DNA of 64,000 bases, taken from IMG/VR virus record IMGVR_UViG_3300005683_000016, positions 32,001 to 96,000 of that record. One strand, 5' to 3'. Of the stretch, positions 3,590 to 52,475 are shown piece after piece (the stretch's first letter is position 1; each line of letters begins with the position of its first letter). The notes below the pieces were generated by a model. It ran no database searches. It was not told the DNA's origin and saw only the letters and a program-made list of their open reading frames with translations. Made by a program: the position numbers and the translations under genes. Origin of the DNA: a virus.

Positions 3590-4510
3590 TTAAGTGATGA
3601 AATAACTTATTCCAGAGAAGTATACATTTCCGTCAAGATTCACTCCTCCTGCTATATCATCAGCAGCGACAGAAACTATACCACCTGTAGTAATCAGTAT
3701 GCTTGCCCATCCATTTGAATCTGCATCTGTGCATCTTACATAAAAAGTCATATTATATGAAGGTCTGTATTCTACTGGAAGAAGAAAAGTTTGAGTAGAA
3801 TTTTCCCCATTCTTTACCGCACCAGAGATTTTTACTTCATTTCCCTTACGATGTATCCGTATAGGATAGCCCAAAACATCTTCCCAATCATTTTCAAGAT
3901 CTACACTTTCTGTATAGGTGACAAGTTCTCCTGTAAAGTTGTTGCTTACCACAAGCCACTGATAAGAAACGTCATTTATTTGTACGAGTTTAAGTCTAAG
4001 TACTTTGTGAACAGGATCGGCAAGATCATAAAAAGAATTGGTCGTAAGAAGAGGATTCCAACTGTACTGAATCTGTACGTTGAACTTGTAATTCAAAAAA
4101 GCAATCTGATTGTCTGTAACACTACTTATGTCCTTTATCAGGATTTCTTTGTTTATAAAGGCAGAAGTGGTGGGAAGGACTAAAGTATTTTCATAAGTAC
4201 CAGATGCTTCATCATCGGTAAACGTAAGCAGTAGTATTTTGGTAACATCCTCTTCTACAATAGTATAAGAATCTCCATCATCTGTTTCTCCATCAGAATG
4301 AAACTTTATGATCTTGGATGCCATTTCATTGTTACATTCTATCAATTGCAACAAGTCTGTAAGGGTTCTTTTATCACCATCGTCCACACTGGAATTTTCA
4401 AAACAAAGGGGGTCTTTATCATAAATGACACAGTCTGCGTTTACCGTAGAAGCACATCCGGTAGAGCAAGGAGTAATGGTTTTGGTTTGAGAGCAATTTG
4501 TACAAGTCAT
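3590..4510 (-). CDS. Structural/fibre-like protein, paralogue 1 (Cys-rich N-terminus)
   Basis: N-terminal CxxC...NADCV.Y; C-terminal beta domain 'V.ISG...LPVEYRPS...FSGISY' common in tail fibre/baseplate proteins. Confidence 0.55.
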   Translation of the reverse strand: MTCTNCSQTKTITPCSTGCASTVNADCVIYDKDPLCFENSSVDDGDKRTLTDLLQLIECNNEMASKIIKFHSDGETDDGDSYTIVEEDVTKILLLTFTDDEASGTYENTLVLPTTSAFINKEILIKDISSVTDNQIAFLNYKFNVQIQYSWNPLLTTNSFYDLADPVHKVLRLKLVQINDVSYQWLVVSNNFTGELVTYTESVDLENDWEDVLGYPIRIHRKGNEVKISGAVKNGENSTQTFLLPVEYRPSYNMTFYVRCTDADSNGWASILITTGGIVSVAADDIAGGVNLDGNVYFSGISYFIT

Positions 4511-4546: not shown

Positions 4547-5395
4547 CTAATCAACATACCAACTTACACCGAACAAAGAAAGATTTTCTCCACTCGTAAG
4601 ATGGGTTCCTCCCGGAAAACTAACTGCAATAAAGGTATTGATCGTAAGAAGTGCTCGATAAGGAGAAGCATCTACCGCTACCAAAAAATAACCGGAAGAA
4701 GAAGGTCTGTCTTTGGCATCAAGATTCAAAAGAGTTGTAGGGACATTTCCTCCAGTGACCATACCCTGCAATTGTCTTAGTTTACCGAGTCTGATAAGTT
4801 TGAGTTCTTCTACTATTTCCCAATTGCCCTCAAGATCTTCATCTGTGAACACTTGAACAGAGGGAGTTCCTATAGAAGGACTTGTTACCACCCAAGAGTA
4901 GTTGATACCGTCTTTTTTCAGATAAGTCAAGTACAAGACTTTGTGAGGCTCCCATGCAAGTTTATCAAACTCGTTTGTTTCCTCTTCTTGATCAAATACA
5001 ATGTTTTCAGAAAACTCCCAATATACTGTACCAGAAGGATCATAATCTACCGAAATATCTTTTAGGATAAGAGTTTTATCTATAAATTCCGCAGACTCTG
5101 GTAATGTAATGGTATAAGTAACATCGTTTGCACTATTGATGTCTCCGTTTAAAAGAAGAATCTTACAAGCATCCTCTGTCAGAATTTCGTAATCTCCTGT
5201 TACAATTTTAGCACTCCTTTCGCACTTATCCTCTCCTATCAGTTCAAGTATCGAAGAAAGAGAACGAGAAGATCCGTTGTTTACATTTGTCTCAAAAGGA
5301 AGTTTGTCTCCCTTATACTCTACACAATCTGCGTTTACAGTATAAGGACAGTCACAGTTTTCCAGACTTACTTTTTTGCATGCTGTACAAGCCAT
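4547..5395 (-). CDS. Structural/fibre-like protein, paralogue 2
   Basis: Likely start MACTACKK at 5395. Collinear similarity to 3590-4510 (NADCV.Y, KILLL, KDIS, HKVL, RPS, G.S). Confidence 0.55.
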   Translation of the reverse strand: MACTACKKVSLENCDCPYTVNADCVEYKGDKLPFETNVNNGSSRSLSSILELIGEDKCERSAKIVTGDYEILTEDACKILLLNGDINSANDVTYTITLPESAEFIDKTLILKDISVDYDPSGTVYWEFSENIVFDQEEETNEFDKLAWEPHKVLYLTYLKKDGINYSWVVTSPSIGTPSVQVFTDEDLEGNWEIVEELKLIRLGKLRQLQGMVTGGNVPTTLLNLDAKDRPSSSGYFLVAVDASPYRALLTINTFIAVSFPGGTHLTSGENLSLFGVSWYVD

Positions 5396-5459
5396 TTTAA
5401 ATAGTTTTTTTAAAAAACACATAAATATAAGTTATAGATATATGAATAAAAGATAACAA

Positions 5460-5924
5460 TTATTCAACAAAGAAAGATATACCATCAAGGTATAATTTGG
5501 ATGATTCTCCAGTTGGAGCAGTACCTGTAAAATAAAGTCTCAGATTTCGATCTACTTCGATCTTTAAAAATACGTTATAGGTTGTTCCTGTAAACTCGTG
5601 TGCCAAGGGAACAATTCTTCTTTCGGTTATTTTGACGGGTAAAGTTGCAATAACTGATTGAACATCTCCACCGGAAAGTTCTCCAGAAAGGTGATAAAGT
5701 TTACCTTTTTTGAGAAGTTTGGGCTGTCGAACAATAGTCCATCCAGTTCCTACAACAATATCCTGAACAGAATCTAAAGTTTCTTCCTGACAGCATAGTT
5801 TTTCAGAAATTTCCTTAAGCCAATCATTAAGAGTGTTACCTTCAAATTCAAAACATTTTGGTTTACGAAGACCTACTTCTATTACTTGGTTAGAAGATAT
5901 GGGATTTGTGTTACAGTTGTCCAT
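5460..5924 (-). CDS. Short fibre-like protein, paralogue 3
   Basis: Shares the C-terminal domain (HLSGELSGG...LP...LYLDGISF) with the two neighbouring genes. Confidence 0.5.
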   Translation of the reverse strand: MDNCNTNPISSNQVIEVGLRKPKCFEFEGNTLNDWLKEISEKLCCQEETLDSVQDIVVGTGWTIVRQPKLLKKGKLYHLSGELSGGDVQSVIATLPVKITERRIVPLAHEFTGTTYNVFLKIEVDRNLRLYFTGTAPTGESSKLYLDGISFFVE

Positions 5925-5970: not shown

Positions 5971-6909
5971 TTAATAATAAGAAGATACATTAGTATAAAT
6001 ACTACTTCTATTTGAAGATTGATTGGTCGGATAAACAATCAGTTCTTGAATTGATTCTGAGGAGTCAGCACTATCCGACCCAACCCATGCTGTAAACGTT
6101 CCCGATCTTGAAAAAGAAGCAAGACCTGAAGCAGACTCACTCTGAACTGAACCATCAATACGAATTTCAGCAGTTGACGCGTTTTGTACGATAGTTTCGC
6201 AAATATGCTGAGAATTGTCTGATACTGTTGTGTTCTTGTACATATATGACGAAACACCTTCAAACAAGGCATAAGAATTTGAAAAATCAGATCCAAAAAG
6301 AAGAAAATCGAGAGCAGTGTTATCACAGAGCGTATTTATAAAAGTGCTGGCAGACACTACCGAAATCCCGTATAATTGTGAAGAACCAGATACATCTGCA
6401 AAATCAACTGTTTCTGAAAGCGGAGTATCGTCCAATGAAAAAAGAGCAGGACGACTATTTTTTTCAAGAACAGAACCATTGTCAACTATTTGCCACTTAC
6501 TCATTGCGACATCAAACTCATATCCATTACCAGACTGGTCATACCATTTTATTACATATCCGTCTGTCCCGGAACAAAAAGTGGTCAACGCTGATTCATC
6601 GAGATCACCATCTGCTTCAAATCCTATGTCTTGGGTAGTGTTGTCTGAAGATCTTTGAACCCTGAGACAATTTCCCATATAAGAAGTAGAAAGTTTTCTA
6701 ACCGATAAAGCAAGTCCTGCTCCGGGATAATCATCAAGTATCCCTGTAAAGGTAGCCAGAGTAACACCGTTAACTTTTTTAATGTTTGAGTCAGAAACAG
6801 TAGATACTTTCTTAATGTCGGTATCTGTTACTCCATCTACTTTTTTGATGTCTTGAGAAGATAGAGGAAAAGAAATTAACAACAACAACAAAAACAACAA
6901 TCTTTTCAT
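5971..6909 (-). CDS. Signal-peptide-bearing ConA/LamG-like lectin (arabinofuranosidase-B catalytic-like) protein
   Basis: MKRLLFLLLLLISFPLSS|Q signal peptide, three IKKVxxV repeats, and 'LSVRKLSTSY.G..LRVQRSSDNT.QDIGF...WYDQSGNG' typical of phage AbfB-like domains. Confidence 0.7.
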   Translation of the reverse strand: MKRLLFLLLLLISFPLSSQDIKKVDGVTDTDIKKVSTVSDSNIKKVNGVTLATFTGILDDYPGAGLALSVRKLSTSYMGNCLRVQRSSDNTTQDIGFEADGDLDESALTTFCSGTDGYVIKWYDQSGNGYEFDVAMSKWQIVDNGSVLEKNSRPALFSLDDTPLSETVDFADVSGSSQLYGISVVSASTFINTLCDNTALDFLLFGSDFSNSYALFEGVSSYMYKNTTVSDNSQHICETIVQNASTAEIRIDGSVQSESASGLASFSRSGTFTAWVGSDSADSSESIQELIVYPTNQSSNRSSIYTNVSSYY

Positions 6910-6922
6910 AGTGTGTTTATAA

Positions 6923-7618
6923 TTATTTTACTTCAACAATAGTTTGAGAAGGATTTAAAAATTCTTTTACCTGAATGTCATTATTGTTCTTTTTACTGAA
7001 CAAAGTATGAAAAAGAACATGGCATTCTTTACAAAAAGTAATTCCGTTATTTATATCTGTCCTTAATTCAACATGAGAAGCATAATTAAATATATGATGA
7101 GCATTCAATTCTCCACCTCTTTGTTTACATTTTTGACATGTATAATTATCTCTTTTAAATACTTCCTTTCTCCAAACTGTATCTGCTGTATATCTTTTTT
7201 GTTTTACAGGTGTTTTATAATTACCATCGACCCAATTAGGATGTTCCGAACCATAATATGTAGGTGGTTTATTACCGTTTAATAATGATTTTTGTCTTAT
7301 TTTGTTTTTATGGTCTTCTGATAAACTACCTGTTTTTAATCCTTTGTTCCAAGATTTACGTCCTTTATTAAAACTATTACAAAGCATTCTCGTACTTACT
7401 GCTTTGTTGTAACATTCTCTACAGCAGTATTTTCTTGGTCGTTTGTGCCATCTTCCTTTAGGTGTAAACTCTTTATTACATATTAAACAGTTTTGAACTA
7501 TTTTGTTTTTCTCTTTTAGAGACTTAGATTTTTCGTATCTAAGTTTTGCTTTCTCTCTAAGTTTTTCCCTGTTTAATATATAATACTCTTTTTGTTTGTT
7601 TTTATCTTTATAAGGCAT
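6923..7618 (-). CDS. HNH homing endonuclease with NUMOD3-like motif
   Basis: 'WRKEVFKRDNYTCQKC...LNAHHI...NGITFCKECH..FH' HNH core plus 'SEDHKNKI' NUMOD3. Confidence 0.9.
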   Translation of the reverse strand: MPYKDKNKQKEYYILNREKLREKAKLRYEKSKSLKEKNKIVQNCLICNKEFTPKGRWHKRPRKYCCRECYNKAVSTRMLCNSFNKGRKSWNKGLKTGSLSEDHKNKIRQKSLLNGNKPPTYYGSEHPNWVDGNYKTPVKQKRYTADTVWRKEVFKRDNYTCQKCKQRGGELNAHHIFNYASHVELRTDINNGITFCKECHVLFHTLFSKKNNNDIQVKEFLNPSQTIVEVK

Positions 7619-7624
7619 AATAAA

Positions 7625-10600
7625 TTATTTTATTTCTACAATGGTCTTGTCTGGATCAACTAATATTCTATCAGGATGTACTGCAATACCTACAATCACC
7701 ACACAATCATCAGTACCACTTGGAGCAGTTTGAGTAAGAGTATTTCCTGTTGTTCCCGTAGTAGAAAGATAGACATAACCTCCTACTGTCCAGTTCCAAG
7801 AGTCATTTCTTGCAATACCCTTAAGTAAATAGGTTGCTGAGTTACCAGTAGTAACGGTAGCGGTACACATAGCAACTACTTTTGCTGTTGCTATGCCATC
7901 TGCATCAGCAAGGGTTGCATCACCATCAGAACCTATATATACTACGTCACCAAATGCTTGGTTTTCATTAGCAGTAAAAGTTATTTTTTCACCACTTACT
8001 GTTGTGTTAGAAGAAGGTGCAGCAGTAATTACCATTGAGTTTAAGGTGGTTGTCGTAAAGGACAAACCGTCTCCCAAAGTTACACCAGAAAAATCACCAT
8101 CACCATCGGCACCAACCAGTATCGTCGGGTTATCTGTTGTAAGATCTGAAACCCTTAACTCACCTGTAATGTCTACTGTTCTTGCTGGAGCAGAGGTAGA
8201 ACCAAAACGAGTTGCACCAGCAAAGTTGTTTGTAGTGGAAGAACCAGACTGATAAATACCTTTTGCAGATGAATTTGAATAAGCGATTTCTAATCCTCTA
8301 AAATCTGCAATTGTCGTAAGGGTCGGATTTAAGTAGATTCCTCTGGTAATACCACTTGCTCCACCTGTCTGATTAATCGTAGAAGTAAGATTTAGAGATG
8401 CATATGCTTGAGTACCTGAAGTCGGATTAAAAGTATCATCTAACAGAATAGTATGATCTCCTAAAGTAGTTACACTATAAGTAGAGGGAGAATAGACATA
8501 AATTTCTTCTGCCGAATCATCAAATCCCCACAAAGGATTATTATCGTTCCAAGCAAAAAAGAAAGTTCCGTTGGAAGATGCTTTTGCTACCGTAGCATCT
8601 GGAATAACATCCGAACCTCCATAAATACCATTTCCTGCACCTGCTGTAGCAGTAAGAGTTGTTCCTGTAAGACTTAATCCACTTCCTACTGTAATACTGG
8701 ACAACACACCGTTAGCATCTGCTCCTACTATACTGGCAGGATTAGTAGTAGACAAATCTCGTATTCTTACTTCTCCTCCAACATCAAGAGTTCTACTTGG
8801 ACTTGATGTGGAAGACCCTATTCCTAACTTACCTCTTAGATAAGATCTTACAGTATCACCTTCTGGTTGCCACAAAAACGTGTGAGTAGAAGGTTTATAG
8901 TTGATTCCTCTAAAATCATTGGGAGCAGCAGTAAGAGTAGGATCTATGAACAAACCGTTCATGGGTTGATTTGCACCACTGGTTTGATTTATAGTAGTTC
9001 CCAACCTGAGCAAAGAAGGGTATCCTGTGAGAGTACTTGCCAAAGTAGGTGAGTAAGTACCTTCAATGTTTAAAAAGGTGCTTCCTACAAACGTATCTGT
9101 TTTAGCAGCAGTTGGTACTATAGTTACCCCTTGAATAAAAGAATTACCACCCGGAGGTTCTAATTTTATGGTACCGCCCGATGTTTTCAAGGTCATGTTT
9201 CCAGATCCACTGATATAAGACGCATCGTCTTGATAAAGAGAAAATCCAGTAGAGGAAGAAGATCTTTCAATAAATATACCATCAGCAGTGGTGGATTGTT
9301 TTAAATAAAGTCTATAACTTGAAGAGGGACTTGCTCCAATTCCAACTTGAGCACCATTAAAAGTAAAGTCTGCATCACTAGTAACAGTTTGAGTTCCGTT
9401 AAAATAAGCAACCCTACCGGATACTCCACTACCTGTAATGTCGTCACTTGCATTAGTATCTCCCGTGTTTGTTAAAGTGATAGTGGATCCAGATTCGTTA
9501 ATAGAAAGTCCTGTAGAAGCCTCAATTGTAACAGCAGTAGAACCACTGGTATTACTTACAATAGTAGAGGTGGTTCCGCTTCCAGCACCTACTGTTAAAC
9601 TTCCTTCATTGGTTACACTTCCATCCACTTCAGTTGCTGTCACAGTAACGGCACCTGCGGTTTGAGAAATTACAGCAATCCCCGCTCCTGTAATAGACCA
9701 CGAACCACCACCATTAGATAAAGTATTGGTATAAGTAGTAGTACCTCCGTGAGAATATGTTTGTAGTTCATTTGAAGTACTACCGTCTACCTCGGTAGTA
9801 GTGATACGAAGTACATTGGACGATGGTTCACTAAGTACACTTATTCCTGCTGCTTCAATGGTGATGTCGTTAGAAGAACCAGAAATGTCAAATACATAAG
9901 GATTGCTTCCAGTAAGAGACAAATCTTGTATTTCGTTGGTAGTTGAACCGTCAACTTCAGTTGCACCAATAGTTATGGTTGATCCACTTTCACTTACAGT
10001 GACTATTCCTGATCCTTCTATAGTTACTGCTGTGGAACCAGATGTGTTACTCACAATTGTAGAACTATTTCCACCTCCTGTTCCAACAGTTAAACTACCT
10101 TCATTACTAACACTTGCGTCAGTAGCAGTAAAGACAAGAGTATTTGCCGGAGATTCCGACAAAGTTATACCGCTTCCAGAAATTGTAACGTCTGTCCCTG
10201 TTGACGATTCAATTGTATAAGTAGGCCCTGCACCACCAATTGTAAGATCGGTTGCTCCACCAGTTGCGGTTAAAGTGGTTCCAGACAATGACAATCCTGT
10301 TCCTACTGTAATACCGGCAAAATCACCATCGCCGTCTGCACCTACTAAAACAGTTGGGTTGTCTGTTACCAAGTCGCTGACCCTCAGTTCTCCAGTAACA
10401 TCTAATGTGCGTGCAGGAGTAGAGGTAGATCCTATTCTTGTATTACCTGCAAAGTTGTTTGTAGTACTTGTTCCAGACTGATAAATACCTTTTGCTGTGG
10501 CACTTGAATAAGGTATGTCTATTCCTCTATAGTCTGCTACAGCAGTAAGAGTTGGATTGATATAAATAGATCTGATTATACCGTTTGCTCCACCTGTCTG

Positions 10601-13600
10601 ATTAAATGTTCCATCAAAAATAAGTTGATTGTGGATAGCATTCCCGGACGTGGGGTTGAGTCCGTAAGCAAACCTCATATAGTTTCGTGTACCAGATGTT
10701 TGTCCGAGATTAGCAATGTTTCCTATAATTATACCAGCAGTAGAGTTTGCTGCGTTCGCACTGGCTGTTATATCTATTGCACTTGCAGATGTTGCTGTAT
10801 TCGAAACACTTACTAAACCAGTACTGCCTCCAAGAGTTATATTTTGAGCAGAATTTCCTACAGTATAAGTAGTAGCGACAGTAATGGCAGAGTTGGAAAT
10901 AGTAACTGGTGTGGTAGATCCTATGGATAAAATACCTGTAGAAGTGGTTCTATCTAACTTCATTATCTCTGCCAATGCTCCTGCATTGTCTCCCAACTGA
11001 AAAGACAGTGCTGCTTCCCTATTTGCGTGCGTGGCATTAGTCCAATAAGAAGCGATTCGAGCCATATCTTGATTGGTCGTTGTAGAAGAGTGACCCTGAA
11101 ATAAAAGAGCGTTACCAAACAATGTACCACCAGCAGTAGTCGAGTTAGTACGGAGTGTGAGTATATCAGAAACCGTAACAGTGTTTGCAGTAACCTCTGT
11201 CAGGGTCATTTGTCCTCCGGTGGAAGCACCTGTTGAAATAGATGCTCTTGTTACTCCGTTTGTTTCAAAAGATAAAGTGTTGTTGTCATTTGTACCTATA
11301 ATCATTGCTGCACTGAACGAATTACCATTTTGTAAAACATCTCCCGTACCTATCGGTGTAGCCCACGTTCCATCACCCCTCCAAAAAGTAGAAGAAGATG
11401 CTCCAGAACCACTATTTAAGTTGGCAACGGGAAGGTTTCCTGTAATGGCATCCCCATCGGCTAAATCTAAAGCACCCCAAGCATAAGTAGAGGCTCCAGT
11501 TACTCTTAAAACTTGACCAACTGTAGAAGAGTTTGTGATGGCAGTTACAGCAGAGGTTCCGTTACCCTGTAAAATACCAGTTAAAGAACCTGCTCCAGTA
11601 CCACCACGAGATACCGCTAATTGTCCTGTCCAACCTAAAGTCAAACTTGCGTCTCTCAAAAGAGAAGTGGAGGGGTTTCCTCCTAGAGTTAAAGTAACAT
11701 TGGTGTCGTCTACCTTAGTTAAAGCACCTGCTGCGGTATAAGAAGGTGCTGCTGTAGAACCTGTAGCATTACCAAAGTAAGTATTTGCTCCTGCATTAGA
11801 AAGAGAAAAGGTCAAAGCAGGAGTAGTGGTAGTAGTGGCTTCACTCGTAGTAAACAAAGGAGACAAATCACCCGCACTAAAGTTTGTTACAGTACCATTA
11901 TTTGTTGCTGCAATGGTCACCACACCTGCTCCACTTGTACCAGTAGTAGTTAAGGTAATACCACTTCCTTCGGAAAATTGTATAGACCCGCCAGAATTTG
12001 ACAGGGTTAAAGTGTGTGTAGTAGCATCACTTGTATTAGCAAGTGTTTGAAGTTCGTTGGTAGCAGATTCGTCCTGAAATACTCTGGAAAATACCAAATT
12101 TGTAGTTCCTAAAGTGAAAGGCCCCTTAGTATCTAATTTCCAATAAGTAGCACCATAAGTAGCACCTAATTTTACTGCTACTAAAATACCGGGATCCAAT
12201 TTAGATGCTCCATCAGCATCCGTAGAGCGCGTCCACGATCCTGCTGCACAATCCCAAATGCCGTTTTCTTTAGGATCTGTTTGACCTGCCACTAATACTC
12301 GTTGACCGGCACTAATTGAAACACCATCGATTGTTTCAGTACCACTCAAGTCAAGATTGGAAGTGGCAACTGCTTGAACAAATAATTTAGAAGTAGCAGT
12401 ATGATTGTTAAACGTAAAAGTAGGATTACCAGAAACCCCGTTTGTGTTTGCACTACCAATACCTATGTAGGAGGAGGATAAAGAAGAAGCGGAAATAGAT
12501 CTGGTTGCCCAAGTACCATCTCCTGTTCTTACTGCTAATCCTGTAGTTGATAGTCCTTCAACTCCTGCCAGATCATTTGCAAGAGCAAGGGTCATGTTTC
12601 CACTTGAAGTAACAGGAGAACCCGATACAGTAATACCAGCAGCAGGTTGAGTAATTCCTACACTTGTAACTGTTCCTACAGTGTTAGTTACATCAAAACT
12701 AACGGAGGGACTGTTTGTAAGACTAATAGTAAATCGTTCTATTCCTCCTACAGTAGTAGAGTCTATGGAGAGGTCTTGAGTATCAGTATCAGTAATAGTT
12801 GAGGCTATAGTTACGGTTCCAGCAGAACCAGTACCACCTGTGGTTAAGGTGATTCCAGTACCTTCAATAAATTGAACTGTTCCTCCACTATTAGACAGAG
12901 TTACAGTGTGACTTGTAGCATCAGAAGAATTAGTTATGGTCTGAAGTTCGTTCGTGGTAGAGCCATCTACTTCGGTAGCAGTTATTGTTAAAGTGTTAGA
13001 AGTAGCATTATAAGAAGTAGAAGCAATACCAGCACCAGCAAATAATAAAGTTTGGTTGCTAATAACCTCAGTATCTCCTGCGTCACCATCTACTGTCCAA
13101 GCCTCATTAGTAGTACTACCATCTGTTTCAGTTGCTGTAATAGTAAAGTTTGGGTATGTTCCAGTTATGTCTACTATTCCACCTTCAGTAAGAGAAACAG
13201 TTTGATCAGGAGCACTGTTAGTAATAGTTATAGCGTCTGTACCTGCATTTGTGGTAATGGTAATTCCAGTACCGTTTACTAATGTTAAAGCGTCTGTAGT
13301 ACCGTCTGCAACTACATCAGATTGTCCAGAAACTGAAACTGTCTGAAAGATATTTTGAAGTTCGTTGGTTGTGCTACCATCTACCTCTGTAGTAGTGATT
13401 CTAAGAACATTAGCAGAAGGCTCACTAAGTACAGAAATACCAGACGCTTCTATTGTAATGTCATTAGAAGAAGTAGAGATGTCAAAAACATACGGATTGG
13501 TTCCTGTTAAAGAAAGATCTTGAATCTCATTAGAGGTAGAAGCATCTACAGCAGCAATAGTTAATTCGTTAGAACTGCGACTAAGAGTAATACCAGATCC

Positions 13601-16600
13601 TTCAGCGAAAGTTACATCTGTACCTGTGTTTGAATTAAGAGTATAGGGAGAACTGGAACCTGAAAAGGTTAAATCAGTTACCCCTGCACCCGGAGTAGCA
13701 GCAATAGTAATAGTAGAACCAGATTCAGTAATAGTAACGTTAGAACCGCCCTCTATAGTTACTGCGGTAGATCCACTTGTATTACTAACTATGGTTGAAG
13801 AGTTACCTCCACCAGCACCTACAGTGAGTGAACCTTCATTAGTTACGCTCCCGTCTACCTCAGTAGAAGTAATTAAGAGCACATCAGTAGAAGTATTATA
13901 GTCAGTAGTAGTTATACCTGCACCCTGAAACTTTACAGTCTGATTACTAATAACTTCAGTATCAGCATCGTCAGCATCAATAGTCCATGCTTCATTTGTA
14001 GTGGAACCATCGACTTCAGTAGAAGTTATTGTAAAATTTGGATAAGTACCTGTCACTACAGTAATTCCACCATTATTTAATACAACAGTTTGATCGGGAG
14101 AAGAGTTAGTAATAACCAAAGTGTTAGCAGGACTCTCTGAAAGTGAAATTCCAGTACCGGCAGAGAAATTAACATCGTTGGAAGAACCACTAATATCTAA
14201 GGTGTAAGGAGAAGAAGAACCTGTAATAGTTAAGTCTTGAATCTCATTTGAAGTGCTTCCATCCACCTCCGTAGCAGTAAGAGTAATAGAACCACCATTA
14301 GAAGAAGTAGACTCACTAATCGCAAGAATACCAGCAGCATTTATAGTTACAGCGTTTCCAGTAGAAGTTGTAGTTAACAAAGTAGCAGATGTACCACTAC
14401 CTGCACCAACTCCTAAAATACCTTCGTTGGATATACTACCATCAACTTCAGTCCCTGTAATGATTAAAGTATTAGCAGGAGACTCGGAGAGTGTAATTAT
14501 ACCGGCACCAGAAATAGTTATATCTGTTCCTGTAGAAGACTCTACTGTGTAAGTAGGCCCGCTTCCTCCGATAGTTAAATCAGTAGATGCAGAAGGAGGT
14601 ACAGCCCAAGTTCCATCTTCTCTTAAAAACTCATCAGTACCACTTCCGTCTCCATCTGGAACCAAACCTCTTAAAGAGGAAGTCATTATTGGAATAGTAG
14701 TACCTGTTCCACCACTAATACCCAAAGCCCCGGTAGATTGAGTATAACTTAAATTTTGAGCATCGGTGTTATCTAAGTAGGAAGAGAGATCAACTGTTTT
14801 GAAAGGAACCCCATCAGAACTAAGAGAAGCACGAAGTATATTACTTACAATTTCAAATGTATCAATTTGTTGAATTTCATTTGTCGTGCTACCGTCTACT
14901 TCAGTACTCGTAATAGTAATGGTGTTTCCAGATTCGTTTACAGTAGTAATTCCAGATCCAGTAAGTGTAATAGTTGCGCTACCAGAACTGTTAGATTGGA
15001 TTAAAGAAGTGGTTCCAGTACCTGCTCCTACTGATAATACACCTTCATTTGTAACAGATCCATCTACCTCTGTTGCAGTTAAAATTAAAGTATTTGCAGG
15101 TGATTCACTTAAAGTTAAGATACCTGCCCCTTGAATAGTTACATCAGAACCCCCACTGATAGCAATATCGTAAGTAGGCCCCGATCCTTCTATGGTAAGA
15201 TTTTGAGCATCTGTATTAGTGACAGTACTCGCTATAGTAAAATTGGGATAAGTCCCTGTTACATCAATCCCTGTTCCTTCAGAAAGACTAACCGTTTGGT
15301 CTGGAGAACTATTAGTAATAGTTAACTCATTAGAAGAACGAGACAATGAAATTCCTGTGCCAGCAGCAATGGTCACATCTGTTCCAGAAGACGAGTTTAA
15401 TGTAAACGGAGTAGATGCTCCGGTAAAAGTAAGGTCGGTAGCTCCTCCCGAAGGAGCATCACCCCAATATATCTGCGAACCAGATGAATACAGTATTTGT
15501 CCAGCATCACCATAAGTTCCTGCTGATTTTATCGCAATGCTGTCCGGCGTGACCTGGATCAGATTGTTAGCACTGTTTGCCAACTGAACAACATCATTGT
15601 CAATATATACTTGTGCTTGTGCATTTGGACTGTAAAATCCTACGTGCCCATCTGTGGCAAGCGAATCTTCGCCAGAGTAGAAATCTGCCATGATCTCGCT
15701 GTTCGGATACATGAACTGAATGCTTGCAACACTGTCAAAATTTACGAGCCTAACGGTATCGGCCAAAATATTTCCATTTGAGTTGTAGATATTCTGACCA
15801 CCGGCAGTATTAATGTCAAAATAAATTGAATTGCCATCTTCAATACTGATTTCAAATCTTTCAATGTCTCCGATCATTGCGGAGTCAATCGAAAGGTTTT
15901 GGTTGTCTGTGTCAGTAATGGTGCTTGCGATGGTGAAATTCGGGTATGTGCCCGTCACATCAATTCCCGTACCCTCGGAAAGGCTCACTGTTTGGTCAGG
16001 CGCCGAGTTGGTGATGGTAAAATTGGGATAGGTGCCACTCACGCTGATCCCCGTTCCGTTGTTCAGAACAACCGTCTGATCGGGCGCTGAGTTGGTAATC
16101 ACCAAGGTATTTGCCGGGGACTCCGACAATGTGACCCCTGTTCCAGAAGCAAAATTCACATCGTTTGCCGAACCTGAAATGTCCAGGGTGAATGGGGAAG
16201 AAGACCCTGTGATGCTCAAGTCCTGTGCGTCGGTATTGACGTATGAAGAAAGATCAACGCTGGAAAAAGGAAGTCCGTCGTTTAACAGCGAAAGCCTGAG
16301 GGTATTTGACACGATCTCAAATGTATCAATGGTCTGGATTTCGTTAGTAGTAGACCCATCCACTTCGGATTGGAGATACCTTCCATCGAGATCTACTGTA
16401 TTACCTCCACTGATTGAGAGTTCTCCATTAGACCCATTCCAAGAGAGTGTTTGAGCATCAGTATTCGTAGAGGTATTAGTAATGGTAAAGTTGGGATAAG
16501 TTCCAGTAACTGAGATACCTGTACCATTATTAAGCACTACTGTCTGATCAGGAGCAGAGTTTACTAAAGTAGTTCCACTGAAATTTAACCCTGTTCCTAA

Positions 16601-18055
16601 GGTAATTTCACTTACATTAGCAGTAGATCCTGTAGGATTTCCTAACAATGTTTGAGCAGTGGCTTGCTGCATCTTAGCGTAAGTAATTTGATTATTACCT
16701 ACATGGATAGTCAAAACATTCAAGGTGTCTAAGAAAAGACCTCCCGGAATCCAGTTAGAACCATCGGATGCGTAGAAGTATTTAGATCCGTTAACATCTA
16801 CTGTTTTTAGAATAATAGACCCCTCTATATCTACAGAGGGTAAAGGAGTTATAATATCTAAATTATAAACTTGAGGACTGCTTCCACTTACTCCCGGAAG
16901 AACTACAAAGTCTTCGGGAATAGAATCATTAAATAGAGAGATGTAAAGAGTATCATTAGAAACTCTAAACGTGTCTACATACTGAAGATATGTATCGTCG
17001 TTATAATCTTTATGAGTAATACTTAAGGAGTCAAACGTAGCCCTGTGATCTGAGTAGTAACGAGCATCATTACCTCTGATAGTAACTCGATCTGGAGAAG
17101 TAGTAAATAAATTAATCCCATTACCACTTATGTCTAATCTATTAGTTCCTCCTATGTCGTTTTGTTTAAGAGTTAAACTATCAGGAGTAAATCTTGCTTG
17201 TGCTCCATATACTGTAAGATCGTAAAGGATGTCAAAATAAGCAGAATCTTTATCTGACAAAAAGGTGATACCGGAATCAATTACTGCTTCGTGATGATAA
17301 GTTACAGTGTCAGAAACTCCATAAATACCACCTCCTTGACTTGCAGAAAGTCCAGTAAGAACTACAAATTTTTTAGGAACTCCATCACTTGACAGTGAGA
17401 GATAAAGAGTGTCGTTAGATAGAACGAAGGAATCTATCTGTTGAATTTCATTAGTAGTAGATCCATCAACCTCTGTTGAGGTTATAGTAAAGTTAGGATA
17501 CGTTCCACTAATAGCACTAATACCTGCTCCAGTTAAAGTCACAGTCTGGTCAGGAGAACTATTTGTGATAGTAAAATTAGGATAAGTTCCACTTGTAGTT
17601 ATTCCTGTACCAGAGTTTAAAACTACAGTTTGATCAGGTGCTGTGTTAGTGATTATGTTACTACCTATGCTAATTCCTGTTCCTGCTGTGTAAGGTACTG
17701 AAGCACAGTTAAGACAATTCCAAGTAGAACTGTTGTACCAATAAATTAAGTTAGAGTTGTTAATAATAAAGTCTGGTTCCCCATACTTGGGAGACACAGT
17801 AGGAGCAGCATTGGAGTTTAGTTTACCAATCATAGATCCTGCTAAAACCCACACACTATTAGTGCGGTTAAATCTCCAAATCTTCGAAGTGGTAATATCT
17901 ATGGCCCATTCACTGTCATATTGAACTCTTGGTGTACCTGTAGGTTGACCATTAGTATAAATAACAGCAGCACCTTTACTCACGTTAGTAACCTGAGAAT
18001 AGAGGGAAATAGTAGAAATTAAAAGCAAAAGAGTAAAAATAATTTTATTCAACAT
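7625..18055 (-). CDS. Giant (~3,476 aa) Ser/Thr/Gly-rich repeat fibre/adhesin protein with N-terminal signal peptide
   Basis: Probable start [20 protein letters not shown]|Q at 18055 (the tracked start at 18163 lies inside the upstream gene). Many EVDGSTTNE(I/L)Q and PDQTV...GTYPNFTI repeats, a phage-fibre 'TIDGV...RVLV..QT..ENGIW...WTR' domain, and a C-terminal cement-like domain. Confidence 0.8.
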
Positions 18056-18419
18056 CTTCAACAAGGAGTTTAGGTGAACCATAAGGTAATCCATAAGTAT
18101 TATTTTCTGAAAGATAATAGATTTTGTCTTTTTGTACTCCGTTATCAAAGGCTTCTTGGTCATTAATAAAGAATTTAATAACGGTAGTTTCTCCGGGTAA
18201 AAGAGTACCGTCAGAAGTTACTATTCCCACATATCGAGTAGTTACCGAGAAAATTTCCGTAACTTCTTGGGGAAAGAATGAATTATTAAGTAAAAGATAA
18301 CTGTGTAGTAATTCAGACCAATCAATATCTTTTTGTCCTATTCCAAGATACCTTGAGAGGACATATTTATATTGTTGATTGAATAGTTTACATTTGGATT
18401 TATCGAGAGAAAACCGCAT
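18045..18419 (-). CDS. Hypothetical structural-module protein
   Basis: 124-aa ORF tightly packed in the operon. Confidence 0.6.
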
Positions 18420-23002: not shown

Positions 23003-24688
23003 TTACCCGAAATAGGGTTCAAAGATAGGACGACCTGTACGGGGATTGTAAGGTTTAATCAAAAGGGATTTGGTGGGATCTTTTACCCAATAAGCCTTGT
23101 GACGTTTTTCAATATAAACTTCAAAACCTGGAACACCGGGGCCACTGGATTGATAAGGGCCAGAACGAGAAGTACCAAGGTTAGGATTATCCATGTAATT
23201 CATACGACCATTTACATAAAAGTGATTGAAATCACGATCAGGGCCATACACAATTTCATAGATGTTGTCATTTTGAGCAGTCAAGTCATCAATGATAAAT
23301 ACATAAGAACTCAAACGGTGCCCATCAACCATCGGATTTTCGAGATCATTAGCATGGATAGGATCAAGTGCAGGAACATGCACAAACTCTACCACACCAA
23401 AAGACATACGATATTTGATAAAGTTGGGAGCATCCAGATAAAGTTTCTGATTATCGTTACCAGAGATGTACTTGTCGGAATCCCAAGTAAGACCCAAAGA
23501 TTGAGCAACATCCAACATTTGACCTCTTACCAACTTAAGACCTGCAAGACCAGTACCAATACGAATTACATTTTGACCATAGGGATCAATTTTGTCTTTG
23601 AGACGACTGGTAATCCAACTTTCGAGTTTACGAAGTTGGAACTTGGGAATATTGTAATTGTAAGTAGGGCCAAGATTCATTTGTTGGAAAAGACCAACAG
23701 GAAGACGTACTTGAGTTCTACCTTCTACATCAAGAGTACCACCAGCACCCCACATAGCGTAGAATTCAACGTCACGTTCTACCATTGTCATAGCAAGTGC
23801 TTCAACTTCAGGAATCCATGTACGTTTCACAATGTCACGTGCAAGGGCTTTTTCATCACCTTTGTAAGCCTGAACAAGTGTAGAATAGTCACCTTGTCCA
23901 CTACGAGATACATCCCAAGCAGCACTGCCGGGACGAAGTTGATACATCTCAATTACTTTACGATACTCTTTAAGACCAAGAACACACTTCTGACTAATAG
24001 TAGAAAGGGCTGCATCACGAGTTACAGTAAAGTGTACGTTAGCAATACCCTGACCTACATAGTTGTAGTATTCGGTGTAACCAGTCTTAATTGTACCAAA
24101 GTCGTTGTAAGTCTGACCGTATTCACCCAAGAGAGAACCAATTTGAAAGAAGATAGTACCTGCTTGCAAGTACTCTTTGGGGAACCACTTGAGTTTTTTG
24201 TTGGTCGAGTTAAGTTTAACAGTGTAAATTACACCATCACCGTCGTTACGAATTTCATCAGCAGTAACATAAAGTTCAATACCACTGAATTTATCCGGGG
24301 TGATAATAGCACTATTACCAAAAGAACGTTTGTTAAGTTTCAACTTAAAAGTAGTTCCTTCAATACCGGGTTTGTCTACACCACTTACATCTTCTACGAC
24401 ATAAGTAGGTTGATCTGCAATTGGGGTTTTCCAAGTAAAAATGTGTCCGTCCATTTGGAGAACACGATTTTGACCTTTACCAATCAAATCCCACATGCCC
24501 GGACGTTCCATATAACCTGTGGTTATCCAAGGAGTAATCATACCGAGATCTGTGGCATCTTGAGCCTTACCTGCTTCCATTTGCATCAGGTGGGCTTTGT
24601 CAAGGTGTACATGGTAATCATACTCCCTCTGTTGGAGGTAGATACCATTTACAAGTGTTTTTGGAATCGTTTGAACATTGGTTGTCAT
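23003..24688 (-). CDS. Major capsid protein
   Basis: 561 aa in the order portal - scaffold-like - MCP. Motifs 'PG..G.TF.LKL', 'GLFQQ', 'TG..G', 'FVH.PALD' and C-terminal 'WVKDPTKS' typical of crAss-like MCP. Confidence 0.85.
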   Translation of the reverse strand: MTTNVQTIPKTLVNGIYLQQREYDYHVHLDKAHLMQMEAGKAQDATDLGMITPWITTGYMERPGMWDLIGKGQNRVLQMDGHIFTWKTPIADQPTYVVEDVSGVDKPGIEGTTFKLKLNKRSFGNSAIITPDKFSGIELYVTADEIRNDGDGVIYTVKLNSTNKKLKWFPKEYLQAGTIFFQIGSLLGEYGQTYNDFGTIKTGYTEYYNYVGQGIANVHFTVTRDAALSTISQKCVLGLKEYRKVIEMYQLRPGSAAWDVSRSGQGDYSTLVQAYKGDEKALARDIVKRTWIPEVEALAMTMVERDVEFYAMWGAGGTLDVEGRTQVRLPVGLFQQMNLGPTYNYNIPKFQLRKLESWITSRLKDKIDPYGQNVIRIGTGLAGLKLVRGQMLDVAQSLGLTWDSDKYISGNDNQKLYLDAPNFIKYRMSFGVVEFVHVPALDPIHANDLENPMVDGHRLSSYVFIIDDLTAQNDNIYEIVYGPDRDFNHFYVNGRMNYMDNPNLGTSRSGPYQSSGPGVPGFEVYIEKRHKAYWVKDPTKSLLIKPYNPRTGRPIFEPYFG

Positions 24689-25973: not shown

Positions 25974-28691
25974 CTACTTTGAATATTTGTTTTTGTTTGT
26001 TTTTGCAATTAATAGATCGTTTTGAGATTTCTTTAAATCTGCTAATATTTTCTCTCTGCTAACATTTATTTTTTCTCTTTCGAGATCTAACTTGGATTGG
26101 TTAAGATTTCTATCTTCTACCGCTTTTTGCTTGTTCATATCAGCAGTAATCCTGTCTCTGTTAAGAGAAGTTAAAAGAGAATTATAGGTTGCTTTTTCTT
26201 TATCTTGAATTTGTTTAAGTTTAAGAAGTTCCTCATAACCGTCTCCTTCACTGAATTGAGACTGACCTATTACTCTGATTTCAGCAATTCTTTCTTCAGA
26301 TTCTCTATCAAGTTGTTTTTGGCGTGCTTCTTCTTCAAGTTTGGTTTGAAGCATTCTTTCTTGTGATTCTATTTGTTGTTGAACTAAGGATTGTTCTTGT
26401 TGATATTTTTGAGTTTCTTCTATTTGTTTTTTTAAGTTGATGTCTTTAAGTTTAGTATGGAGTTCAGAAACGCTTTTAGTACTTAAAGCAGTCACTTTTT
26501 CGTACAGATCTGCTCCCATTGTGTTATCTTGAAGAACCAGAGTTTTAATAGTCTGAATCAGAGAGTTGTCATCTATGCTTGAAGAGACGTAAACCCCTAA
26601 AAGATGAAGACTTAAATCTTCAGGAATAGAAAATATTTGACGTTCTCCTTCATCAGTGATGTACATTTTGGTTGGGTTGTTACCTCGAATGTCGTGGTAT
26701 TTAGCACATTCCAACATGGTTTGTCTAACAGACTCAAAGAGGGAGAAGTGTTCATCATACAAAGGTTTTAGTTGAGTTACACTTCTTTCAATTCCTTGTT
26801 GGATTCCTGTAGCAGTCTCGGAGGGTGAGATGTCTCCAAGAATCTGAGGAGAAAGTCCTACTTGAAGTAAGCATTCGTTCTTACATATTTCGGCAAGTTT
26901 TGCTTTTTCTAAAATCTGAGTAGTTACAGTGAGGTCTACTTCTTGTCCATAACCTCCAGTTGCAGCAAGCCCTGACTGTCCTGTATTTCCTAAAGAAGAA
27001 TCAACAGGGCCTACCTGTGTATCCCTTGCTGTGAGAATCCACTTCATGTAATTTTGTCTTCCCCACTCTTCTCCCATTGATTCTTGGGGGATGACATTTT
27101 GATTCATCAAAAAGAACTTACCTATTTCTCCCTTGATTAGTTGGTCGTTTCTATTCCATAAATAATTATAGAAAACCTGCCAAGGTTTACACTTATCTAC
27201 TAAGGTGATAGGATCATTATACTTGTTGGTTCTTGGGCCACCGTGAACAGGAATATAAGAACCGTATCTATATTCAGGTTTGGAAAGTTGAAAGGGATAT
27301 TTTTCTAAGGTAATCCAAATATCATCGTTGTTATCCGGGTTGGGATTTGTAGAGAGGTTGATCTTAAGAACCCTCCACAACTCATTGGTGTAGAACCAGT
27401 CTATGTGTTCACCATAAACCAAGGTTCTTTCTGTCTTTTCTTTTAAGATTGTAGTGTCATAAACAGGGTCTATGGTAGGTTTATAATACTCGTCCACTAT
27501 AGAGGAGACTTTTTCTCCTCCATTGGTCATTGTTAACTTTCCTAACTTACGGGGAATTTGGAGATACATGTGACAAATCTCCACAAGTCTTTCTTTATAC
27601 TCACCTCCTCTGTATCTATCATCTGTGTATTTAGAACCTCCTATTTCTCTGAACGCTAAGTAGTTTTGAGCAGCCTCTATATCTCCAGGAGTGTCAAGAT
27701 TGTATCTTTCGTTCGTGTTAATGTTAAGAAGAGTTCGATAGTGAATATGAAGGCTCTCCAACTTTTCCATACTCTCTTCGTCCAGTTTGGAACCAAAGCG
27801 AGTAATTAAGTTAAGAGGAGATTCGTATTCGTGCCACATGAACATTATCCCTTCACTTACATCGTCTATATAGGGACTCTTAAGATAAGCACAATAACGA
27901 GGATCTAAGACTTGAACAGAATAATCTGACTCAGAAAGGTTTACATGAACAAAAGGATGGTCTGTTACCAACTTATTAAAGAAGGCTTGTTTTTCTATGT
28001 CGTGTAACTTATATCTTCTTTGATCCATTTGAAGAGTATGATTGGCCCAATTCTCTGTTTCCAATCGAAACTCTTTTGCCATATATTTTTGGATTTTTGG
28101 CATCTGTTGAAACATTTCCATTTGTTGTTGGTAGACATCTGGGTGTGTTTCAGGTGTTACTCCTTGACTTTCAAGATCAGCGTTAAACTGTTCTTGGAGG
28201 GGTTGAATCAACATTTTTCGTAGAAGATTGTTTTTTTCTTCTACTATCATGTTTACTGCTTCTGGATTAACTGCTATTGCGGAGTAGTTAGTGTAGTTTT
28301 TGGACAACTCTCCTACTAACGTATTTATGATGTTAGGAATAATGGGGTAGAATTTAAGATCAAAATCTAAACTCTCTCCGTCCATTAATTCTAATTCTGC
28401 TTTATACTCAGAGTCTTGTTTAACGTAATCACTTGTATCAATTATCCCATAGGCTAAGTTAAACTTTTTATTAATAGCATCTCTGTGACGATTAATCTGT
28501 TGTCTACCTATCCATTCATAGTGATAAACTAATTGTTTAATCTTAGCAAAGTCATCCTTTTCTTTTTCTTCCTCAGAAAGAACAAAGGAATAGTCCATTG
28601 TTCCGTCTGTGTTCTGTTTGGTTCCCGGAATTACCTTCTTGGGTAATTTGGGTTTCATTCCTAATTGTGGTCTTTGATTTGAAGTAGTCAT
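25974..28691 (-). CDS. Portal protein
   Basis: 905 aa with FYPIIPNIINTLVGE, 'KPWQ..YN..WN', 'ETATG..Q' and a C-terminal coiled-coil barrel; follows the terminase. Confidence 0.85.
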   Translation of the reverse strand: MTTSNQRPQLGMKPKLPKKVIPGTKQNTDGTMDYSFVLSEEEKEKDDFAKIKQLVYHYEWIGRQQINRHRDAINKKFNLAYGIIDTSDYVKQDSEYKAELELMDGESLDFDLKFYPIIPNIINTLVGELSKNYTNYSAIAVNPEAVNMIVEEKNNLLRKMLIQPLQEQFNADLESQGVTPETHPDVYQQQMEMFQQMPKIQKYMAKEFRLETENWANHTLQMDQRRYKLHDIEKQAFFNKLVTDHPFVHVNLSESDYSVQVLDPRYCAYLKSPYIDDVSEGIMFMWHEYESPLNLITRFGSKLDEESMEKLESLHIHYRTLLNINTNERYNLDTPGDIEAAQNYLAFREIGGSKYTDDRYRGGEYKERLVEICHMYLQIPRKLGKLTMTNGGEKVSSIVDEYYKPTIDPVYDTTILKEKTERTLVYGEHIDWFYTNELWRVLKINLSTNPNPDNNDDIWITLEKYPFQLSKPEYRYGSYIPVHGGPRTNKYNDPITLVDKCKPWQVFYNYLWNRNDQLIKGEIGKFFLMNQNVIPQESMGEEWGRQNYMKWILTARDTQVGPVDSSLGNTGQSGLAATGGYGQEVDLTVTTQILEKAKLAEICKNECLLQVGLSPQILGDISPSETATGIQQGIERSVTQLKPLYDEHFSLFESVRQTMLECAKYHDIRGNNPTKMYITDEGERQIFSIPEDLSLHLLGVYVSSSIDDNSLIQTIKTLVLQDNTMGADLYEKVTALSTKSVSELHTKLKDINLKKQIEETQKYQQEQSLVQQQIESQERMLQTKLEEEARQKQLDRESEERIAEIRVIGQSQFSEGDGYEELLKLKQIQDKEKATYNSLLTSLNRDRITADMNKQKAVEDRNLNQSKLDLEREKINVSREKILADLKKSQNDLLIAKTNKNKYSK

Positions 28692-30890: not shown

Positions 30891-31666
30891 TTATATTTCC
30901 ATTTAAATCCCGCTGATTTATGCGTTTTACCTCTGAGACAAGATATTACAGAAGTCTTACTTACTCCACAAAATTCAGCAGCATCTTTTATACAATTCCA
31001 CTCCTTAATAAAGTTTCCATCTAAATCATATTGTAATATAGACTTAGAGTGTTTACTACTACCTCTTGAAGGCCACGTTCCAGGACGTTTGTAGGATTCA
31101 ATTTGTAGTCCTTTATATTCAAAAAACCACATCGTATTTTTAAATTTCTTTAAATGTCCTTTTAAACATTTTCGTAAAGTATTATACGGTATTCCTGTGC
31201 CTTCGGAAGCAAGAATAATTGAATCCCATTTCTTTATAAAATCTCCCTGAGTAGAATATTCAAATACACATTTTACAGTATGATGATTACTTCTACCTTT
31301 ACTTTTAAAAAACTCTTTTATTTTTTCTACTCTTTGACTTTTAACTTTATCTGGTAGTTTAAATCCAGACGTTCCTCCCGGAACTACGTTATATCCATGT
31401 GTAACACTTTGATAATAATTTATCCAAAAAATTTCTCGTTTGTTCAAATTTTTCGCAGAACAATACTCTATAACATAGAAGAATAAATTTTCTTTTCCAT
31501 ATTTATTATATGCTCTTTGTAGTTTAGTGCAATTACTTTGATTTTTACTAAGATCTCTATAATGACTATTTTTTCTTGTTTGTAAATTTGTAGTTAACCC
31601 TATATATCGCTTTCCGTTAACTATATTAAATATACAGTATATTCCTGATTTATTTGTTAATTTCAT
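30887..31666 (-). CDS. GIY-YIG homing endonuclease with NUMOD1 repeats
   Basis: SGIYCI...RYIG...RE..WI..Y...GYN and 'QYDLDGNFIKEW' repeats. Confidence 0.9.
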   Translation of the reverse strand: MKLTNKSGIYCIFNIVNGKRYIGLTTNLQTRKNSHYRDLSKNQSNCTKLQRAYNKYGKENLFFYVIEYCSAKNLNKREIFWINYYQSVTHGYNVVPGGTSGFKLPDKVKSQRVEKIKEFFKSKGRSNHHTVKCVFEYSTQGDFIKKWDSIILASEGTGIPYNTLRKCLKGHLKKFKNTMWFFEYKGLQIESYKRPGTWPSRGSSKHSKSILQYDLDGNFIKEWNCIKDAAEFCGVSKTSVISCLRGKTHKSAGFKWKYK

Positions 31667-35938: not shown

Positions 35939-36163
35939 TTAAAGTTCAATTGATTTAATTATACGTTCAAGGCTTTCTTTTGAATCTGGTTTACCATGAT
36001 ATAAAACGTTAGCAGAATCATCATAGATTAATAAAATGTTTTCTATACAATCTAAAGAAAGAGTTAAGATTTTTGTAGGTGTTTCTTTCTGGTAGTCTAG
36101 ATATTTACCTGACGCGTTGATTTGTTGGAGTCCTAAAGATTCTAAATCATCTTGTGTTATCAT
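35939..36163 (-). CDS. Hypothetical protein
   Basis: 74-aa ORF in the operon. Confidence 0.55.
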   Translation of the reverse strand: MITQDDLESLGLQQINASGKYLDYQKETPTKILTLSLDCIENILLIYDDSANVLYHGKPDSKESLERIIKSIEL

Positions 36164-36536
36164 GTTGTTTAAATTTTAATATGTCTTTTTCTGTTAGAAA
36201 CTGATATTCATTTAAAGATCCTGGAACAGGTACAAAAAATAAAGCCTCGTAAGAACCATTGTCATATAGAGAAAAAGATGCGTTTACATACTCTATAACC
36301 AATTCATCGTTGTATTTATACGCAATCGTTCCTTTTGTATAAATTTTTGTAAGAAGTACAGGCTCATTTACTATCGAATCCCCAGGATTAAATCCTATTA
36401 TTGTAAGTAGTCCTGATGTGTCATGCATCAAAGTTACATCAGGGCCTGATATTATTTGATTCCAATTTGGAGTTTGCGCTTTACTGATAATAGTACTCAG
36501 TAAACTAAGCAGGAAAAAGAATGTCTTTACGTTCAT
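36147..36536 (-). CDS. Secreted hypothetical protein
   Basis: Signal peptide ending SKA|Q. Confidence 0.6.
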   Translation of the reverse strand: MNVKTFFFLLSLLSTIISKAQTPNWNQIISGPDVTLMHDTSGLLTIIGFNPGDSIVNEPVLLTKIYTKGTIAYKYNDELVIEYVNASFSLYDNGSYEALFFVPVPGSLNEYQFLTEKDILKFKQHDNTR

Positions 36537-52455: not shown

Positions 52456-52475
52456 TCTTGTTTAATTTAATTAAT

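Follow-up and report, generated by a model that had tools for sequence, protein, structure and literature searches.

Bacteroidota-type signal peptides predicted on a giant fibre-like protein and a ConA-like protein encoded in the structural operon of a distant crAss-like phage

The subject of this study is a pair of minus-strand genes in a 64,000-nucleotide window, bases 32001-96000 of the 142,038-bp IMG/VR virus record IMGVR_UViG_3300005683_000016; all positions below are those of the window unless a contig is named. The first gene (7625..18055, with its ATG at 18055 and its stop at 7625-7627) encodes a giant fibre-like protein of 3,476 aa, and the second (5971..6909) encodes a ConA-like/ArabFuran-catal-like protein of 312 aa (Pfam PF09206; 559 homologues). 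A first-pass annotation of this DNA had read both proteins as starting with a signal peptide followed by Gln, and the sequence and the homologues agree with it. In the giant protein, the predicted signal peptide comprises 20 residues (17996..18055, minus strand), with signal peptidase I (SPase I) cleavage predicted before Gln21 and a predicted mature N terminus reading QVTNV. In the ConA-like protein, it comprises 18 residues (MKRLLFLLLLLISFPLSS; 6856..6909, minus strand), with cleavage predicted before Gln19 and a predicted mature start of QDIKKV. Both N termini open with a positive n-region, followed by an uncharged hydrophobic core of 10-15 residues and a short c-region, with Ser at position -1 and Gln at position +1.

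The frame of the giant gene spans 7625-18163, and initiation at 18163 would give a 119-nt overlap with the upstream gene. The ATG at 18055 is instead embedded in the final codons of that upstream gene, which encodes a 124-aa protein (GAAGATGTTGAATAA), with an overlap of 11 nt. The relative L026 has an equivalent overlap between the giant's start and the upstream gene, and the relatives P0124-P0127 start at the equivalent Met (MLNK.../MSPK...). Translation starting downstream of the hydrophobic segment, which the first-pass annotation had named as a result that would speak against export, is therefore not what we found: the start codon at 18055 is conserved and translationally coupled to the upstream gene.

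Signals were judged by sequence comparison and a heuristic scan, and the survey of homologues that had been suggested as a check came out clearly. Forty-five of the giant's best 150 relatives contain its conserved N-terminal domain (N-domain), which covers mature residues 1-115 (17651..17995, minus strand) and starts at the mature N terminus. A signal-like N terminus is kept in 44 of these 45, and the sole relative without a complete signal is an ORF (open reading frame) truncated inside the signal. The N-domain begins no more than a few residues from the predicted cleavage site in every N-domain homologue, the first mature residue forms an invariant Gln column in the MAFFT alignment A1 (38 N-domain homologues), and, in each locus examined, the N-domain profile matches the signal-bearing fibre alone. 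By the heuristic measures, the n-region charge across 44 homologues is +1 to +3, and the mean Kyte-Doolittle value of the signal core is 2.4 versus -0.1 for the mature start.

The ConA-like protein presents the same picture. Each of the 27 close homologues listed (38-99% identity) has a hydrophobic leader followed by Gln, and more than 90 distant homologues begin directly with the mature sequence and carry no leader. In alignment A3 (22 close homologues), Gln19 is invariant and every sequence has S, A, or G at -1, while the leader itself is not conserved: the pairwise identity is 0.33 over the 15 residues before the cleavage site versus 0.84 over the 15 after it. Signals are retained on both the giant and the ConA-like protein in L007, L009, L017, and L026, and in L016, a ConA-like homologue without a signal peptide has neighbours that also lack one. 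Within the 142-kb phage genome, the heuristic scan found a K/R n-region, a hydrophobic core, and a small residue followed by Gln in about 6 of some 300 ORFs, and the giant and the ConA-like protein are the sole large ones among them.

Gln at position +1 is the Q-rule feature specific to SPase I substrates of Bacteroidota (PMC5837995, PMC10653852). As in those substrates, we see a tripartite signal peptide with a Gln that is invariant across homologues; the known substrates, however, are cellular envelope proteins, whereas those described here are tailed-phage fibre proteins. Since the pattern is conserved without conservation of sequence, and on two different proteins, it resembles a working signal peptide. 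Sec export of both proteins is thus strongly supported by comparison, and we infer that the giant and the ConA-like protein are actually exported and cleaved.

Such a conclusion must be weighed against a conventional assembly in which the hydrophobic N termini are not cleaved export signals during infection and the proteins stay in the cytoplasm, with the segment either hidden inside the virion or cut off by a phage protease, or with export bypassed through Sec shutdown or saturation. This would fit the normally cytoplasmic origin of tailed-phage virion proteins, and predicted signals on Porphyromonas gingivalis phage capsid proteins have been attributed to prohead-protease cleavage (PMC10367356). 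A structural segment should keep its sequence, however, whereas here solely the physico-chemical pattern and the Gln at +1 are kept. Furthermore, the pattern occurs on two different proteins of one operon as well as on neighbours in other phages, and homologues without signal peptides start the same domains directly at Met1, with no hydrophobic segment. We therefore consider cytoplasmic retention improbable. Even less credible, to the point of being very hard to sustain, is a mixed scenario wherein the bulk of the protein leaves the cytoplasm as free fibre and a minor isoform, translated from an internal start, stays there and is incorporated into particles. A GTG codon does lie five codons past the giant's predicted cleavage site, but the Val at this position is missing in P0126 and P0127, and the homologue alignments show no conserved Met after the signal in either the giant or the ConA-like protein.

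The placement of both genes in the virion operon, also proposed by the first-pass annotation, is borne out by PHROG profile matches on the same strand to a large terminase (28746-30890), a portal (25974-28691), and a capsid protein (23003-24688), and by crAss-like families in the relatives, whose contigs (70-141 kb) carry Pfam Crass_capsid and CrAss_Ring_2 flanking the equivalent gene block. A search of 50,697 phage records found portal relatives solely among Crassvirales and related phages, at 20-27% identity; 67 of the 111 matching records are phages of Bacteroides (30), Flavobacterium (28), or Cellulophaga (9). Related contigs fall into bins of Saprospiraceae and Bacteroidia MAGs (metagenome-assembled genomes), and a megablast search of the locus against the same 50,697 records returned zero matches. 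On these profile matches, the phage is a distant crAss-like phage whose fibre locus lies within the structural operon, between the capsid and tail-ring genes.

The giant protein is a mosaic of fibre repeats, which it has in common with many phage fibres without signal peptides. Its first 400 aa have 2,134 relatives at E<=1e-3 in a full HMMER search; Pfam and NCBIfam searches of the protein gave no family, and no S74 domain was found in it in the Pfam search. The TIDGV..RVLV..ENGIW domain noted at first pass is real, lying centrally (11960..12379, minus strand) and matching PDB 9nx3_A, a 'capsid decoration protein', at E 1.3e-9. The description of the C terminus as cement-like was not confirmed: this 131-aa domain (7628..8020, minus strand; alignment A4), which is kept in relatives, has as its sole matches phrog_12121, annotated as of unknown function, at E 1e-7, and, weakly, the C-terminal part of the Anabaena phage A-1(L) neck fibre protein gp82 (PDB 8keg), at E 0.0025. 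The AlphaFold2 (AF2) model of this domain, with a pLDDT of 42, is unusable. The N-domain was modelled better (AF2 pLDDT 80.6) and consists of two small beta modules. Foldseek gave no PDB match to this model at E<=0.001; the best VIA-align score, Z 3.5, fell on small beta modules within phage tailspikes and is under the noise level, and the fold match to PhicrAss001 7qof chain l is weak (Z 2.1 over 34 residues). No match was obtained by tblastn of the N-domain and a repeat-rich stretch against the 50,697 phage records, although for the repeat stretch this null may reflect low-complexity masking.

The match of the ConA-like protein to PF09206 (E 6e-11) is limited to profile positions 18-87 of 315, and the name of this family, the GH54 alpha-L-arabinofuranosidase B catalytic domain, denotes the fold of the protein and not an activity. 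The reported IKKV repeats are present at its mature N terminus (6754..6855, minus strand) as three (D/N)IKKVxGV copies, or more broadly (D/N)(I/L)KKVxGV; in the 22 sequences of alignment A3, K22, K23, V24, G26, and V27 are invariant. Two homologues without signal peptides, P0031 and P0064, begin with similar I.KV.GV repeats. Phages of Arthrobacter, Gordonia, and Synechococcus encode homologues that lack a signal peptide, and the annotations of these read tail, minor tail, or virion structural protein. Conservation among close homologues lies in the N-terminal half, and the C-terminal half varies greatly, much as in receptor-binding proteins, to which we liken it. Given the matches to capsid decoration protein 9nx3, to the A-1(L) neck fibre, and to tail and virion proteins of cultured phages, the modules of both proteins derive from virion fibres.

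Two known fibre systems offer a comparison. The A-1(L) neck fibre (PMC10966104, PDB 8keg) is likewise a multi-protein fibre, gp82-gp81-gp80, in which the C-terminal part of gp82, the region matched weakly by the giant's C terminus, is a trimeric bead that receives N-terminal hairpins of the next fibre protein, and which ends in a carbohydrate-binding tip (PMC10966104). Its proteins, however, are cytoplasmic. The crAss-like phage PhicrAss001 shares with our phage the position of fibre genes between the capsid and tail-ring genes, and its head and tail fibres gp21, gp29, and gp22 insert their extreme N termini (residues 1-26, 1-38, and 1-58) into tail hub or hexon pockets (PMC10172136). In contrast, the N terminus of the giant is a predicted signal peptide followed by an unrelated domain, and the text of PMC10172136 contains 0 occurrences of 'signal'.

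Where the exported proteins would go was approached through known sorting signals. Neither protein gave any NCBIfam hit at E<=0.1, and thus none to TIGR04183, the C-terminal sorting domain of the type IX secretion system (T9SS); a search of the entire phage genome in all six frames with PF18962 (Por_Secre_tail) was likewise empty, although this Pfam model was weak in controls. A lipobox is absent from both proteins, as the signal is followed by Gln instead of Cys, and no Cys lies near the cleavage site. Profile searches of the phage genome found no signal peptidase (PF10502) and no glutaminyl cyclase (PF05096). With no pointer to a crossing of the outer membrane, the proteins would wait in the periplasm after Sec export. 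The routing to the periplasm proposed at first pass therefore stands as to export, which is well supported by the conserved signals and the Gln at +1; of its two destinations, the virion at lysis and the surface of the infected cell, we hold the first to be the likelier.

The sole experimental pointer comes from Cellulophaga phage phi10:1 (NC_021802) and, by analogy, favours the virion route. This is also a Bacteroidota phage with consecutive late tail-end proteins that combine a K/R-rich n-region, a hydrophobic core, a small residue, and Gln. All of gp091-gp095 begin with a signal peptide and then Gln, and the records of gp091-gp094, which have structural or tail-fibre product names, carry the note 'annotation based on experimental MS/MS proteomics analysis'. 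Phage phi10:1 is, however, a 54-kb siphovirus and not crAss-like, and none of its ORFs matched the N-domain profile or the 124-aa upstream protein. No printed discussion of its signals was found in the literature searched.

We propose that the giant and the ConA-like protein belong to a phage fibre whose parts are exported instead of being assembled in the cytoplasm, and which joins virions at lysis, a reading to which we give about an even chance. In this scenario, both proteins would be made late from the structural operon as precursors with a Bacteroidota-type Sec signal peptide, and SecYEG would translocate each precursor unfolded. Host signal peptidase I would then cut before Gln, with a host glutaminyl cyclase probably capping the new N terminus as pyroglutamate, and the fibre would fold and trimerise in the periplasm. 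The ConA-like protein would probably dock via its N-terminal IKKV repeats, and the conserved domain at the new N terminus would be the attachment end. Once the holin breaches the inner membrane at lysis, particles built in the cytoplasm would meet and pick up the periplasmic fibres. A physical partnership of the giant with the ConA-like protein is plausible, and we infer both their docking to each other and their attachment at lysis.

Several observations weigh against this proposal. The phi10:1 proteins detected by MS/MS might be free fibres that co-purified, and no structural protein examined in the cultured crAss-like phage phi14:2 has a signal, so the trait is specific to certain clades. 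The phage studied here also encodes fibre-like proteins without signal peptides (154, 291, 306, and 672 aa), and the exported pair therefore need not be receptor-binding gear. In the literature searched, no earlier case of a tailed phage with exported fibres came up. Glycosylation would be one possible benefit of export, and its sequons show no overall enrichment: D[ST][AILMTV] is present 16 times in the mature giant against about 27 expected and once in the ConA-like protein against 2.4, and the family-wide ratio of observed to expected is 0.99 for signal-bearing fibres and 0.79 for fibres without signal peptides. Thirteen of the giant's 16 sequons cluster in mature residues 186-832, a region chosen after seeing the data. 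Taken together, the sequon counts neither support nor undermine export. Finally, the arrangement of the IKKV repeats and the C-terminal domain in L017 misfits a simple bead-and-hairpin docking. There, NIKKVGGV repeats are found on an 87-aa protein without a signal peptide (L017:3560-3823), and the gene downstream of it (L017:3828-10031) encodes a signal-bearing fibre of 2,067 aa with a different N-terminal domain. The ConA-like protein of L017 has its signal and lacks the IKKV repeats, and the C-terminal domain sits on a protein other than the 87-aa one; modules are shuffled from protein to protein.

If the exported pair never enters the virion, it could form a fibre or adhesin that sits on the infected cell's envelope or within it, anchored by its N-terminal domain, in the manner proposed for the mosaic adhesive trimer (MAT) fibres of Bdellovibrio bacteriovorus. 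Possible roles would be receptor masking or superinfection exclusion, shielding progeny from trapping on debris, or clumping infected with uninfected cells. MAT fibres have a signal peptide directly followed by a conserved N-domain, which is beta-rich and measures about 130 aa, and a long modular fibre of phage-fibre-like modules; they are trimeric, with variable tips (PMC10769870). The giant shows the same layout of signal peptide, conserved beta-rich N-domain, and modular fibre, and the N-domain of MATs is proposed to bind a cell-surface element (PMC10769870). MATs, however, are cellular proteins of a predator, many of which end in an S74 chaperone, whereas the giant is phage-encoded, lies in a virion operon, and lacks S74. 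None of the giant's top 150 matches is MAT-like, and MATs were compared by layout, from their description. A role in the envelope would also suit the presence of other fibre candidates without signal peptides in the phage, the existence of probably cellular Bacteroidota proteins on 211-254-kb contigs that join a signal peptide, the giant's fibre repeats, and an S74 chaperone, and the Q-rule proteins encoded by P. gingivalis phages, which are small, of unknown function, and thought to modify the host envelope (PMC10367356). On the other hand, with neither a T9SS C-terminal domain nor a lipobox, no route through the outer membrane is indicated; the gene occupies the fibre slot within the structural operon of several phage lineages and is essentially absent from cellular genomes; a 10-kb gene would be a high price for masking; and the signal-bearing proteins of phi10:1 were detected by MS/MS and annotated as structural. 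We regard this envelope role as the main rival to the virion route, possible though less likely.

The distribution of the N-domain bears on both the exported virion fibre and its envelope alternative. N-domain fibre genes occur in the unrelated phage contigs L011, L012, and L013 (58, 97, and 45 kb), after genes for the prohead protease, the capsid, and other structural proteins, and in L011, the fibre gene precedes an Amidase_2 (endolysin-like) gene, which is the usual tail-fibre slot. At least 5 IMG/VR contigs carry further copies in a narrow pattern search, and a pattern scan of 185,579 prokaryote species, with one genome per species, found the N-domain on at least 2 small MAG contigs; as these scans were narrow, both counts are lower bounds. 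N-domain fibres are phage genes that are almost absent from bacterial genomes.

A further protein accompanies the fibre. The 124-aa protein encoded upstream of the giant (18045..18419, minus strand) has no signal peptide and contains one copy of a ~45-aa repeat ending ..YYLsxNTYGxPYGxxK, and its equivalent in L026 likewise has one repeat copy and no signal. In L011, L012, L013, L021, and L024, genes just upstream of the N-domain fibre encode a signal peptide followed by Gln; the signal-bearing gene directly adjoins the fibre in all of these except L011. The upstream proteins of L011 and L024 contain four copies of the repeat, ending ..YYLsxNTYGxPYGxKKvIP, and those of L012, L013, and L021 match it as well (pattern ..ND.eA..NG....YYLs.NTYGxPYG..K; genes L011:6704-7672, L013:8878-9999, and L012:9202-9996). 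Since the repeat recurs in upstream genes across lineages, it marks a conserved neighbour that accompanies the fibre from one phage lineage to another, and we regard the protein that carries it as a candidate adaptor or partner of the fibre.

A broader version of the proposal is that many tailed Bacteroidota phages build part of their virion outside the cytoplasm, through Sec export, SPase I trimming, pyroglutamate formation, and addition after the membrane breach, with the N-domain as a post-lysis docking module; we hold this generalization tentatively, at a little short of an even chance. Textbook tailed-phage assembly is wholly cytoplasmic. Sec-dependent fibres would add a second assembly compartment, and if the lysis route is true, this would constitute a new assembly pathway with two compartments, for which Caudoviricetes offer no known example. 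Phage infectivity would then have host secretion, signal peptidase I, and glutaminyl cyclase among its host factors, and export could explain the failure of such fibres to assemble when expressed in Escherichia coli. For annotation, a signal peptide is often read as evidence against a virion role, and Gln at +1, as a pointer to Bacteroidota, makes the trait relevant to predicting hosts as well. We found no published description of signal-bearing tailed-phage fibres in the literature searched, the nearest being the P. gingivalis phage Q-rule proteins (PMC10367356). To this, the locus adds a giant fibre with an internal capsid-decoration match and a weak neck-fibre match, an N-terminal domain whose link to the cleavage site is strict in different phage lineages, and a conserved upstream repeat protein together with a signal-bearing lectin-like protein in the fibre-tip position. 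The N-domain at the cleavage site provides a concrete experimental handle, and phi10:1 is a cultured system for direct testing.

Downstream of the ConA-like gene lie the genes of three proteins without signal peptides, of 154, 291, and 306 aa (5460-5924, 4547-5422, and 3590-4510, all on the minus strand), which are probably conventional fibre proteins assembled in the cytoplasm. They are conserved in relatives, have Cys-rich N termini (MACTACKK..CDC.., MTCTNCSQ..C..GC), and share a common C-terminal motif (..LDGISFFVE, ..LFGVSWYVD, ..FSGISYFIT).

The giant gene is split from the ConA-like gene by an HNH homing-type endonuclease gene (6923..7618, minus strand; Pfam HNH and PHROG HNH families), which begins 6 bases past the giant's stop and went unmentioned in the first-pass annotation. 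The relatives L007 and L026 have no HNH gene at the equivalent position, and the endonuclease is an insertion, not part of the fibre system. Its C terminus (..QTIVEVK) resembles that of the giant (..KTIVEIK). A GIY-YIG homing endonuclease gene (30887-31666, minus strand) lies directly upstream of the large terminase gene, which it overlaps by 4 nt.

A second class of signal-bearing fibres (P0145, P0200, and P0144) has the giant's repeats and a different N-domain (Q-TPEKxNYQAV..). In some of its members the C terminus is a Peptidase_S74 chaperone, and proteins of one cluster are encoded on 211-254-kb contigs; these are probably cellular Bacteroidota surface fibres. In L011, Q-rule signals are also present on a Peptidase_S8 protein (L011:14797-16245) and a 106-aa protein (L011:13789-14109), beside the Amidase_2 gene. 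The window itself encodes further small signal-bearing phage proteins at 36147-36536 (minus strand), 54110-54475 (plus strand), 52302-52835 (plus strand, read from internal Met58), and 62774-63253 (plus strand). Leaders among these small proteins include MNVKTFFFLLSLLSTIISKA, MKYIIFLLFLPLTLRS, and MKRIFSIVFFLTVWFTCQS, each then followed by Q and of the Bacteroidota type, and one of the proteins is lipoprotein-like, with MKKLFFLVLLVPFIS followed by C.

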